A program made the position numbers and the translations under genes. The notes below the pieces were generated by a model. It saw only the letters and a program-made list of their open reading frames with translations, searched no databases and was not told the DNA's origin. Positions 18,784 through 39,503 of a stretch of DNA of 64,000 bases are shown in pieces. Numbering within the stretch: the first letter of the stretch is position 1; the number at the start of each line of letters is the position of its first letter. Source of the stretch: Escherichia coli (GTDB lineage: Bacteria > Pseudomonadota > Gammaproteobacteria > Enterobacterales > Enterobacteriaceae); the NCBI RefSeq assembly GCF_022846255.1, contig NZ_AP025682.1; one strand, written 5' to 3'.

Positions 18784-18853
18784 ACAAACGAATTATCCAC
18801 AATCCGCTGATGGACATTTTTCCAGCAATTACACTGCTGTCGATAATTAACTA

Positions 18854-18890
18854 TTGACGAAAAGCTGAAAACCACTAGAATGCGCCTCCG
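18854..18890 (+). promoter_or_regulatory. Promoter of the tRNA-Leu operon
   Basis: TTGACG (-35), 16-nt spacer, TAGAAT (-10), then GC-rich discriminator GCGCCTCC typical of stringently controlled stable-RNA promoters; about 40 nt upstream of the first tRNA. Confidence 0.6.
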
Positions 18891-18922
18891 TGGTAGCAAT
18901 TCTTTTTAAGAATTGATGGTAT

Positions 18923-19009
18923 GCGAAGGTGGCGGAATTGGTAGACGCGCTAGCTTCAGGTGTTAGTGTCCTTACGGACGTGGGGGTTCAAGTCCCCCCC
19001 CTCGCACCA
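18923..19009 (+). tRNA. leuQ: tRNA-Leu (anticodon CAG)
   Basis: 87-nt GCGAAGGTGGCGGAATTGGTAGACGCG...CTCGCACCA with CAG anticodon and long variable arm; first of three tandem copies. Confidence 0.9.
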
Positions 19010-19037
19010 AAAACCACGTTGATATTGCTCGCACTGG

Positions 19038-19124
19038 GCGAAGGTGGCGGAATTGGTAGACGCGCTAGCTTCAGGTGTTAGTGTTCTTACGGACGTGGGG
19101 GTTCAAGTCCCCCCCCTCGCACCA
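19038..19124 (+). tRNA. leuP: tRNA-Leu (anticodon CAG), variant copy
   Basis: Same 87-nt tRNA; one C-to-T difference in the variable arm (GTGTTCTTACGG vs GTGTCCTTACGG), which keeps pairing as G-U. Confidence 0.9.
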
Positions 19125-19158
19125 AACGAGGCGATATCAAAAAAAGTAAGATGACTGT

Positions 19159-19245
19159 GCGAAGGTGGCGGAATTGGTAGACGCGCTAGCTTCAGGTGTT
19201 AGTGTCCTTACGGACGTGGGGGTTCAAGTCCCCCCCCTCGCACCA
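19159..19245 (+). tRNA. leuV: tRNA-Leu (anticodon CAG)
   Basis: Third tandem copy, identical to the first. Confidence 0.9.
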
Positions 19246-19283
19246 ATTATCTTTACTTCTTTTCTTGTCTCTTCACTGTTTTA

Positions 19284-19520
19284 TCACCCCTGATTCAAAT
19301 TCATTATCATCAGCATGATGCCAGCAATAAGCGCCAGGCACGATGGTAGCAAAACGTAATGCCGTAAATGTTTGTGATACAACATCACCGGCGTCAATAC
19401 CAATCCCATCAGAATGACAATCCGCCATTGATCCGGCGATAAATCCGCATACATCAGCCCTGCAATCAGCAATCCCGGCAGCAACACTCCCCAGCCACTG
19501 CCCAGCGTACGTTGCAACAT
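19284..19520 (-). CDS. yjjZ: Small membrane protein YjjZ
   Basis: ORF track 19284..19631; start at internal Met (MLQRTLGSGWGVLLPG); 78 aa; divergent from fhuF. Confidence 0.8.
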   Translation of the reverse strand: MLQRTLGSGWGVLLPGLLIAGLMYADLSPDQWRIVILMGLVLTPVMLYHKHLRHYVLLPSCLALIAGIMLMIMNLNQG

Positions 19521-19537
19521 GGTTTCATCTCTTTCAT

Positions 19538-19650
19538 TGATAATGATAACTAATATCATATGATAATTTTTATCATTTGCAAGCCAGAGAAATCCCTTGC
19601 TATCGGGTAAACCTATCGATAGGATTAGCAATAATTATCATTTAGATTAC
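19538..19650. promoter_or_regulatory. Fur-box cluster in the divergent yjjZ/fhuF promoter region
   Basis: TTGATAATGATAACTAATATCATATGATAATTTTTATCATT and CAATAATTATCATT resemble the GATAATGATAATCATTATC Fur consensus; immediately upstream of fhuF. Confidence 0.65.
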
Positions 19651-19660
19651 TATCACGATT

Positions 19661-20449
19661 ATGGCCTATCGTTCCGCACCGCTCTATGAAGATGTTATCT
19701 GGCGAACGCATCTCCAGCCGCAGGATGCTGGGCTTGCACAAGCCGTGCGGGCGACGATCGCCGAACATCGTGAACATTTGCTGGAGTTTATCCGCCTGGA
19801 TGAACCCGCCCCACTTAACGCCATGACGCTGGCGCAATGGTCATCAACTAATGCGCTAAGTTCTCTACTCGCAGTCTATTCCGATCATATCTACCGCAAC
19901 CAACCTTTGATGATCCGCGAAAACAAACCGCTGATCTCACTGTGGGCGCAATGGTATATCGGCCTGATGGTACCACCATTAATGCTGGCGCTGCTGACTC
20001 AGGAAAAAGCATTAGATGTGTCGCCGGAACATGTCCACGTTGAGTTTCACGAAACCGGACGCGCCGCCTGTTTCTGGGTCGATGTGTGTGAAGATAAAAA
20101 CGCAACACTACATTCGCCGCAGCAGCGAATGGAAACGTTAATCAGCCAGGCGCTGGTTCCGGTTGTGCAGGCACTAGAAGCAACGGGAGAGATTAACGGC
20201 AAACTTATCTGGAGCAATACCGGTTATTTGATCAACTGGTATCTGACTGAGATGAAACAGCTGCTCGGCGAGGCGACGGTTGAATCGCTGCGCTATGCCC
20301 TCTTTTTTGAGAAAACGCTTACTACCGGTGAAGATAATCCACTCTGGCGTACCGTGGTGCTACGCGACGGCCTGCTGGTGCGCCGCACTTGCTGCCAGCG
20401 TTATCGCTTACCGGATGTGCAGCAATGTGGCGATTGTACGCTGAAATGA
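19661..20449 (+). CDS. fhuF: Ferric-siderophore reductase FhuF (C-terminal 2Fe-2S CCx10Cx2C)
   Basis: 262-aa ORF ending ...RRTCCQRYRLPDVQQCGDCTLK. Confidence 0.93.
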   Translation: MAYRSAPLYEDVIWRTHLQPQDAGLAQAVRATIAEHREHLLEFIRLDEPAPLNAMTLAQWSSTNALSSLLAVYSDHIYRNQPLMIRENKPLISLWAQWYIGLMVPPLMLALLTQEKALDVSPEHVHVEFHETGRAACFWVDVCEDKNATLHSPQQRMETLISQALVPVVQALEATGEINGKLIWSNTGYLINWYLTEMKQLLGEATVESLRYALFFEKTLTTGEDNPLWRTVVLRDGLLVRRTCCQRYRLPDVQQCGDCTLK

Positions 20450-32224: not shown

Positions 32225-32893
32225 TCATAAATAATGGATATTATTAATTTAATTTCATAAAAAGCGCTCTGGTTAGCACTTAACGTTAATCATTAATCAC
32301 TGCGTTCACTCACATGATCAGAAGGAACCCAGTAAAATAAGTTTTCAAGTTGATAACAAATTCACCATGTGAATATTTACTGCCTTTCCCCGTTGTAACG
32401 AATCGTCCGTTACTCTCTGATTTCCTTGCCGAACAAGTTATTTAGTGAATGACGGCTTTCTTTTAATATCAGCATGAATTATACGTTCAGCAAATGTATT
32501 AAATCAGCACTAAATAAATTTAATGGATACCACCATTCTGCGTCAACACTTAGTTTTTATCTGTATTGACAATTTAAAATGGCCGCAGCCAAATTAATGA
32601 TTTTATTTTTAATAAATCATCAACAGAATAAGAGATCTTATCAGCGGTAACTAAACTCATCAGAGGGTGTTCCTTGTAACGTCATGCATTACATAACTTT
32701 AAAATATACAATCAAAAAATGCATTAAAAACCGATTAAAAGCAGCAAAGTATTACCCGGTGCACGAATTTATGATACATCTGCAGCCATTCTGCTATTCG
32801 CTGACTACTTTTCAGTAATGACTGCTTTTTCATAAGGTTTCACTCCCGACAACAATGTTGGAGTTTTATTTTCTTAGCATGGAGTAAGTAAAG
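32225..32893. promoter_or_regulatory. AT-rich divergent intergenic region between the antiporter gene and the TRAP operon
   Basis: About 670 bp, very AT-rich, no ORF of 60 aa or more; contains a TTGACA-like hexamer. Confidence 0.35.
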
Positions 32894-37942: not shown

Positions 37943-38213
37943 TATCTTTCCCCTGAAAAATTCAAAATCATTAATATAGAAACAGTTAATCGTCACGTTA
38001 CCGGGACTGAGCTATCCCCGCAATTCCTCATTTTATCAAAATTGAGCATACTTTATTAACTTACTGATATTTAGTATTTTATTACCTGCAAATGTAAATA
38101 GTTTGTTAATTAGATCACATTTACATCACTTACTTTTGCCAAACTACGCAATCGGGAATAAAAGTAATCATTAACATATTAATGATTAAAATGATCGAAT
38201 CCGAGGAGTGGTA
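37943..38213. promoter_or_regulatory. hpaR/hpaG divergent promoter-operator region
   Basis: AT-rich interval between divergent hpaR and hpaG. Confidence 0.45.
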
Positions 38214-39503
38214 ATGAAAGGCACTATCTTCGCCGTAGCGTTGAACCATCGCAGCCAGCTTGATGCATGGCAGGAAGCGTTCCAGCAATCCCCCTACAAA
38301 GCCCCGCCTAAAACTGCGGTCTGGTTTATTAAACCGCGCAATACGGTGATTGGTTGCGGTGAACCGATTCCCTTTCCACAGGGTGAAAAGGTACTGAGCG
38401 GTGCGACAGTTGCGCTGATTGTGGGAAAAACGGCGACGAAAGTACGTGAAGAAGATGCGGCAGAGTACATCGCCGGATATGCGCTGGCTAACGACGTCAG
38501 CCTGCCGGAAGAGAGCTTTTACCGCCCGGCAATCAAAGCAAAATGTCGTGATGGATTCTGCCCCATTGGCGAAACCGTGGCTCTCAGCAATGTCGATAAT
38601 CTGACCATCTATACCGAGATCAACGGGCGTCCTGCCGATCACTGGAACACCGCCGATTTACAACGTAATGCCGCGCAGTTGCTGAGCGCCCTGAGCGAAT
38701 TTGCCACGCTGAATCCAGGCGATGCCATTCTGCTCGGCACGCCACAGGCGCGCGTGGAAATACAGCCAGGCGATCGCGTTCGTGTTCTCGCAGAAGGTTT
38801 CCCGCCACTGGAAAATCCGGTAGTGGACGAACGTGAAGTGACCACGCGCAAGAGCTTCCCAACGCAGCCACACCCGCACGGCACGCTGTTTGCCCTCGGC
38901 CTGAACTACGCCGACCACGCCAGCGAACTGGAATTTAAGCCACCGGAAGAACCGCTGGTGTTCCTGAAAGCGCCGAATACCCTCACGGGCGATAACCAGA
39001 CCTCCGTGCGCCCGAACAATATTGAATACATGCACTACGAAGCGGAGCTGGTGGTAGTTATTGGCAAGCAGGCGCGTAACGTCAGCGAAGCCGATGCCAT
39101 GGATTATGTCGCGGGCTACACCGTGTGTAACGACTACGCCATTCGCGACTATCTGGAAAACTACTACCGCCCTAACCTGCGGGTAAAAAGCCGCGACGGA
39201 CTGACGCCGATGCTTTTAACCATCGTGCCGAAAGAGGCGATCCCGGACCCGCATAATCTGACCCTTCGCACCTTCGTCAACGGCGAGTTACGCCAGCAAG
39301 GCACCACCGCCGATCTGAACTTCAGCGTGCCCTTCCTGATCGCCTACTTAAGCGAATTTATGACCCTGAATCCGGGCGACATGATCGCCACCGGCACACC
39401 AAAAGGCTTATCTGACGTGGTGCCTGGCGATGAAGTAGTGGTGGAAGTCGAAGGCGTGGGCCGCCTGGTGAACCGAATTGTGAGTGAGGAAACAGCGAAA
39501 TGA
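38214..39503 (+). CDS. hpaG: Bifunctional 5-carboxymethyl-2-oxo-hex-3-ene-1,7-dioate decarboxylase / 2-hydroxyhepta-2,4-diene-1,7-dioate isomerase (FAH family, duplicated domain)
   Basis: ORF track 38208..39503; start at MKGTIF with GAGGAG RBS; 429 aa. Confidence 0.88.
   Translation: MKGTIFAVALNHRSQLDAWQEAFQQSPYKAPPKTAVWFIKPRNTVIGCGEPIPFPQGEKVLSGATVALIVGKTATKVREEDAAEYIAGYALANDVSLPEESFYRPAIKAKCRDGFCPIGETVALSNVDNLTIYTEINGRPADHWNTADLQRNAAQLLSALSEFATLNPGDAILLGTPQARVEIQPGDRVRVLAEGFPPLENPVVDEREVTTRKSFPTQPHPHGTLFALGLNYADHASELEFKPPEEPLVFLKAPNTLTGDNQTSVRPNNIEYMHYEAELVVVIGKQARNVSEADAMDYVAGYTVCNDYAIRDYLENYYRPNLRVKSRDGLTPMLLTIVPKEAIPDPHNLTLRTFVNGELRQQGTTADLNFSVPFLIAYLSEFMTLNPGDMIATGTPKGLSDVVPGDEVVVEVEGVGRLVNRIVSEETAK

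Follow-up and report, generated by a model that had tools for sequence, protein, structure and literature searches.

Two Fur operators, one per promoter, probably occupy the spacer between the divergent yjjZ and fhuF genes of Escherichia coli

Introduction

The closest described relatives of the yjjZ/fhuF control region are found in Escherichia coli itself. At fepB-entC, two divergent Fur-repressed promoters come with two distinct protected regions, one per promoter (PMC2189734). The divergent genes of fepA-fes are likewise repressed by Fur, with a single footprinted Fur region in the bidirectional control region (PMC2189734, Table 3 and methods). In the aerobactin iucA promoter, with its extended GATAAT array, overlapping sites follow each other in a 6-bp register, the kind of cluster that Chen et al. 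described (PMC2189734). The spacer between yjjZ and fhuF shares traits with all three. It resembles fepB-entC in having two divergent promoters with a protected region each, but it measures 140 bp, compared with 374 bp (624511-624884) for fepB-entC, and whereas fepB and entC share one pathway, yjjZ is without known function. The divergent genes recall fepA-fes, although Fur protects two regions here instead of one. The sites overlap in a 6-bp register as in iucA, but the array, at about 48 bp, is shorter than the iucA type and without sign of a long secondary extension.

Binding and regulation at this spacer have been described in several studies. Chen et al. 2007 (NAR; Chen, Lewis, Shultzaberger, ... 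Storz, Schneider) predicted two Fur clusters in the K-12 spacer, one with scores of 22.3, 20.8 and 16.1 bits and the other with scores of 14.6 and 9.3 bits, and both clusters were confirmed on the K-12 allele by gel shift and DNase I footprinting (PMC2189734). The Fur titration assay (FURTA) uses fhuF::lacZ as its reporter (PMC2189734). Across nine strains, the log2 change between fur deletion and wild type is 5.5-11.3 for yjjZ, which comes first in the 36-gene core Fur regulon, and 2.0-8.5 for fhuF, another member of that core regulon (PMC10164565). The transcription start site (TSS) of yjjZ is silent in the wild type and active in the fur deletion and in vitro (PMC10301672). yjjZ also belongs to the CFT073 Fur regulon, and a PyjjZ-gfp reporter is iron-repressed in Salmonella, though fhuF is not adjacent to yjjZ there. 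A prediction made from the letters of the spacer, here called the original prediction, had proposed that Fur represses the divergent yjjZ and fhuF genes in response to iron. The footprints and gel shifts (PMC2189734), the ChIP-exo and fur-deletion RNA-seq data (PMC10164565) and the yjjZ TSS (PMC10301672) bear this out.

Results

The window, i.e. the whole 64,000-nucleotide stretch of E. coli DNA that was analysed, contains the yjjZ/fhuF locus of the E. coli chromosome, and the RefSeq annotation of near-identical genomes names both genes. Of 5426 complete E. coli genomes, 5424 contain a 601-bp query taken around the spacer, and the annotation of this region in E. coli consists of yjjZ, fhuF and three tRNA-Leu genes. 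The two coding sequences lie in the window as follows.

19284..19520, minus strand: yjjZ coding sequence, 78 aa, DUF1435 membrane protein (open reading frame with start codon; Pfam PF07256, E=1.4e-36; RefSeq annotation)
19661..20449, plus strand: fhuF coding sequence, 262 aa, ferric-siderophore reductase (open reading frame; Pfam FhuF PF06276 and FhuF_C; annotation)

Positions 19521-19660 are exactly the 140-bp spacer from the yjjZ start codon (19520-19518, minus strand) to the fhuF ATG (19661), and the GC content of this spacer is 30%. An Rfam search of 18800-19800, with E values up to 1, returned only the three tRNA genes; within the spacer it gave no RNA hit.

Several GATAAT-type hexamers in this interval had been the starting point of the original prediction. 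The strings are present and can be read directly, GATAATGATAACTAATATCATATGATAATTTTTATCATT at 19539-19577 and AATAATTATCATT at 19630-19642, but their count alone is not significant: there are nine hexamers with at most one mismatch, compared with 5.8 +/- 2.2 in shuffled sequence (p about 0.12). As the plain count is not significant in DNA this rich in AT, we did not use it as evidence. The Fur signal comes from the way in which the hexamers combine to 19-mers, not from their plain count. With the classical 19-bp Fur consensus and at most three mismatches, there is one match in the 64 kb, at 19539-19557, where 0.02 would be expected. We also constructed a symmetrised 19-bp position weight matrix (PWM) from 19 K-12 Fur regions that have experimental support, with the yjjZ/fhuF locus excluded. 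The training sites were those of fepA-fes, fepD-entS, fepB, entC, fecA, fecI, fur, gpmA, tonB, cir, sodA, ryhB, sufA, bfd, mntH, fhuA, ydiE, yqjH and efeU, and their leave-one-out scores ranged from 10.5 to 22.1 bits with a median of 17.1. A scan of this kind had been proposed as a check on the original prediction; it returned five spacer sites of at least 10.5 bits, i.e. within the range of the proven sites.

19539..19557, no strand assigned: strongest Fur box, GATAATGATAACTAATATC, 20.8 bits, the top score of the whole 64 kb; spans -10 to +8 of the yjjZ TSS
19562..19580, no strand assigned: second strong Fur box, GATAATTTTTATCATTTGC, 15.9 bits, third best in the window; spans -33 to -15 of the yjjZ promoter
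19545..19574, no strand assigned: overlapping boxes in 6-bp register, 10.5 bits at 19545-19563 and 11.2 bits at 19556-19574
19627..19645, no strand assigned: weaker Fur box, AGCAATAATTATCATTTAG, 13.3 bits, seventh best in the window (11.7 bits for the K-12 allele); spans -3 to +15 of the fhuF TSS

A further site of 6.3 bits at 19621-19639 overlaps the weaker box. Overall, the PWM sites overlap in a 6-bp register, with starts at 19533, 19539 and 19545, at 19556 and 19562, and at 19621, 19627 and 19633. Between starts 19563 and 19610 the matrix gave no positive score.

AT-rich promoter DNA could merely look like Fur boxes, and the low GC content of the spacer, a hexamer count not above that of the shuffles and the likeness of Fur hexamers to -10 elements would all fit such a chance resemblance. 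However, when the 140 bp were shuffled 5000 times with dinucleotides preserved, a shuffle contained on average 0.18 sites of at least 10.5 bits, none of the shuffles reached the observed five, and a maximum score of at least 20.8 bits occurred in only 0.08%. The near-invariance of the boxes across 18 genera, with divergent flanks, and the concordance of the published footprints, ChIP-exo and expression data argue in the same direction. A chance resemblance is extremely improbable.

The same matrix marked other sites in the window. A second Fur-like cluster, at 63256-63395, has a PWM strength similar to that of yjjZ-fhuF (18.2 bits at 63368, 15.5 at 63356, 15.2 at 63359 and 11.4 at 63263). It is located inside a hypothetical open reading frame with 27% GC (62829-63542, plus strand), between the gene for a type I restriction R subunit and yjiS, and its DNA is not homologous to K-12. 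The K-12 yjiS-yjiT spacer has a Fur ChIP-exo peak of its own (PMC10164565), with a PWM score of 11.6 bits there. The cluster at 63256-63395 may reflect genuine Fur binding, or it may simply result from AT-rich codons. Isolated 19-mers of 11.7-14.5 bits were also seen in AT-rich stretches at 32230-32248, 58367-58385 and 38157-38228.

The published footprints were transferred to the window via the two published start codons and the K-12 alignment, which gave the following three regions.

19532..19584, no strand assigned: high-affinity Fur-protected region, named 'fhuF1' (DNase I footprint, K-12 4603763-4603815; PMC2189734)
19585..19613, no strand assigned: stretch of ~29 bp between the published footprints, unprotected by Fur; includes the fhuF -35 as well as the junction of the GGDEF-gene loss described below
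19614..19667, no strand assigned: low-affinity Fur-protected region, named 'fhuF2' (K-12 4603680-4603733; PMC2189734)

The ChIP-exo peak at 4603779-4603794, present in iron-replete cells only (Gao et al. 2023 supplements, PMC10164565), corresponds to 19553-19568 in the window. Footprinting and ChIP data, which were among the checks suggested along with the original prediction, both place Fur in the spacer of K-12 and other strains. In the MG1655 sheet of the PMC10164565 supplement, another peak, P135 (4593337-4593349), is assigned to fhuF from ~9.5 kb away. This assignment is probably a table or assignment error, and the peak was left unused.

The position of the boxes relative to transcription follows from the two core promoters.

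19547..19582, minus strand: yjjZ sigma-70 core promoter; -35 TTGCAA (19582..19577), 16-bp spacer, -10 TATGAT (19560..19555), TSS 19547
19597..19631, plus strand: fhuF core promoter, hexamers inferred; -35 TTGCTA (19597-19602), 17-bp spacer, -10 TAGGAT (19620-19625), TSS 19630/19631

The yjjZ promoter was found by a consensus scan on the minus strand, and its hexamers are conserved across genera. The same TTGCAA and TATGAT are given in PMC3946193, and the published TSS at K-12 4,605,777 (PMC10301672) corresponds to window position 19547. For fhuF, the TSS was mapped to the window from the legend of Fig. 5 in PMC2189734, and the hexamers were deduced from spacing together with the conserved CTTGC and TAGGATT blocks; the resulting -10 lies only 4-5 nt ahead of the mapped TSS, which is short. 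A second fhuF promoter within the strong cluster, on the plus strand (TTGATA-16-TATGAT, 19537-19564; cf. the Shimada prediction), was considered and found unsupported. Two points speak against it: its -35 lacks conservation, most genera having TCGATA or GCGATA there, and the mapped TSS is at 19630/31.

The strong cluster (19533-19580) spans -33 to +14 of the yjjZ TSS and -97 to -50 of the fhuF TSS, and the weak fhuF boxes (19621-19645) span -9 to +15 of the fhuF TSS. With the published TSSs, the boxes thus overlap core promoter elements of both genes, as for occlusion of RNA polymerase. The footprint named 'fhuF1' in fact sits on the yjjZ promoter and 'fhuF2' on the fhuF promoter, which fits the much tighter repression of yjjZ.

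The original prediction went further and attributed the repression of both genes to one shared operator region. In a truly shared operator, Fur would spread or loop from the strong cluster to the weak box and co-repress the two genes, and fhuF repression would require the strong cluster. Several observations speak for such sharing: no more than about 45 bp separates the clusters in E. coli, Fur footprints are documented to extend at higher concentration (PMC2189734), and the W3110 ChIP-exo table gives one peak to both genes (PMC10164565). However, there are two distinct footprints ~29 bp apart, one per core promoter, and the unprotected gap between them holds the fhuF -35 (PMC2189734). A single continuous Fur-protected region over both promoters, of the fepA-fes type, was looked for in the spacer, and what was found were two footprints and a gap in which no PWM score is positive. 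The derepression of fhuF is also much smaller than that of yjjZ (PMC10164565). Moreover, the two sites are ~1.4 kb apart in most Enterobacteriaceae, and fhuF and yjjZ each keep their own box at that distance. fhuF was picked as the titration reporter because Fur titration derepresses it readily, which is another point against a shared operator. On this evidence a shared operator is distinctly unlikely, and this part of the original prediction needs correction.

The orthologous DNA of E. coli K-12 is identical at 133 of the 140 spacer positions and carries the same two clusters. The 20.8, 15.9 and 13.3 bits obtained for the window run parallel to the K-12 scores of Chen et al. quoted above. Of the seven spacer SNPs between the two alleles, one falls in each box cluster: T at 19551 (C in K-12) lowers the top box of the window allele by 1.2 bits, and A at 19633 (C in K-12) raises the weak box by 1.6 bits. 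G at 19622 (T in K-12) falls in the inferred fhuF -10 (19620-19625). This hexamer is polymorphic, namely TAGGAT in the window and most genera, TATGAT in K-12 and TAGTAT in E. albertii and E. whittamii, and the polymorphism might contribute to strain differences in fhuF expression. Counted as exact matches, which only bound the allele frequencies in E. coli, the window form of 19590-19660 occurs in 228 of the 5426 E. coli genomes and the K-12 form in 366, so that neither dominates, and the window haplotype of 19521-19589 occurs in 671 genomes.

We then compared the fhuF loci of 80 enterobacterial species, 75 of these loci having yjjZ. In 69 of the 80 species, yjjZ and fhuF flank a GGDEF gene (354 aa, membrane diguanylate cyclase; Pfam GGDEF E = 4e-47) and are then ~1.4 kb apart (loci L022-L097; the gene occupies, for example, 316-1380 in L036 and 341-1405 in L083). 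It is absent in Escherichia (4 species), Leclercia (4) and Silvania (2), and Intestinirhabdus (L053) has only a C-terminal remnant of it. This distribution suggests that the gene was lost repeatedly and independently. By standard taxonomy, Salmonella and Citrobacter are close relatives of Escherichia. Since both have retained the GGDEF gene, and a remnant of it persists in another genus, a deletion most simply accounts for yjjZ and fhuF being neighbours in Escherichia, and the loss of the gene is the simplest explanation of how the two operators were brought together.

The boxes themselves are found next to their genes throughout. A box of 17.9-22.8 bits, with its centre 25-34 bp from the yjjZ ATG, is present in 75 of 75 loci (63 at +28), and a box of 11.5-16.7 bits, with its centre 23-37 bp from the fhuF ATG, is present in 80 of 80; the background rate for such sites is 0.017 per kb. 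Since each box stays with its own gene at any spacing, the two operators are separate modules. In the alignment of 18 genera, the strongest box (19539-19557) is nearly invariant. The near-invariant block on the yjjZ side consists of GATAATGATAACCAATATCATATGA and the yjjZ -35, and on the fhuF side it reads CTTGC ... TAGGATT ... GCAATCATTATCATTTAGATT, with divergent flanks on both sides. Conservation across genera stops near 19583 and starts again near 19590. The E. coli spacer amounts to hardly more than these two modules, which meet near 19584-19590.

A separate observation concerns the GGDEF gene. In loci labelled C. youngae and C. braakii and in several further Citrobacter, the GGDEF coding sequence contains, ~280 bp from its start, a Fur-like box of very high score that reaches 24.9 bits (for instance CATAATGATTATTATTTTC). 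Its position is about 595-620 in L029, L031, L032, L037, L041, L043 and L044. The internal box has 17-20 bits in L034, L035 and L045 (C. gillenii, C. werkmanii, C. portucalensis) and 13.4 bits in L030.

Discussion

We conclude that the yjjZ/fhuF spacer very probably holds a pair of back-to-back Fur operators, one for each promoter. Dimers of Fe2+-Fur bind the overlapping high-affinity boxes (19533-19580) across the whole yjjZ core promoter and would thereby exclude RNA polymerase, so that yjjZ is essentially silent in iron-replete cells. The separate lower-affinity box (19621-19645) covers the -10/+1 region of fhuF and would allow a looser repression of this gene. Upon iron limitation, Fur would lose its metal and leave both sites, and both genes would be transcribed outward. 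The pattern of derepression, with yjjZ derepressed most (log2 5.5-11.3) and fhuF less (2.0-8.5), matches the strong and the weak site. In E. coli, each operator appears to act chiefly on the promoter that it covers. Some cross-talk is nevertheless possible, given that the strong cluster is only 50-97 bp upstream of the fhuF TSS.

Besides Fur, oxidised OxyR may repress fhuF via the same promoter, in which case the fhuF-proximal block would serve two regulators. A review puts fhuF in the OxyR regulon, and transcriptomic data suggest repression by oxidised OxyR (PMC8115020). The fhuF footprint construct of Chen et al. came from a study of OxyR sites, their ref. 27 (PMC2189734), and CTAT/ATAG elements are visible at 19600-19622. 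Such additional control has, in our estimate, an even chance of being real; it is non-exclusive and does not compete with Fur control through the two operators.

The loss of the GGDEF gene in Escherichia would have put the strong yjjZ operator within 50 bp of the fhuF -35, perhaps coupling the two promoters in a lineage-specific manner. We regard this as a tentative and rather unlikely idea. If there is coupling, Fur at the strong cluster may promote occupancy of the weak fhuF box, or the back-to-back promoters may interfere with each other. There would then be a quantitative difference in fhuF regulation between E. coli and Salmonella or Citrobacter, and polymorphisms in the fhuF -10 and the weak box might add to the strain spread of derepression (log2 2.0-8.5).

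The yjjZ/fhuF spacer is among the best-documented Fur targets of E. coli. Its Fur operators are already known, so the finding is correct but ordinary and matters little as a discovery. The modest added value lies in the comparative result, namely two independent promoter-operator modules that appear to have been joined by gene loss in Escherichia. This result corrects the picture of a shared operator, and it explains why the footprint named 'fhuF1' is found on the promoter of yjjZ.
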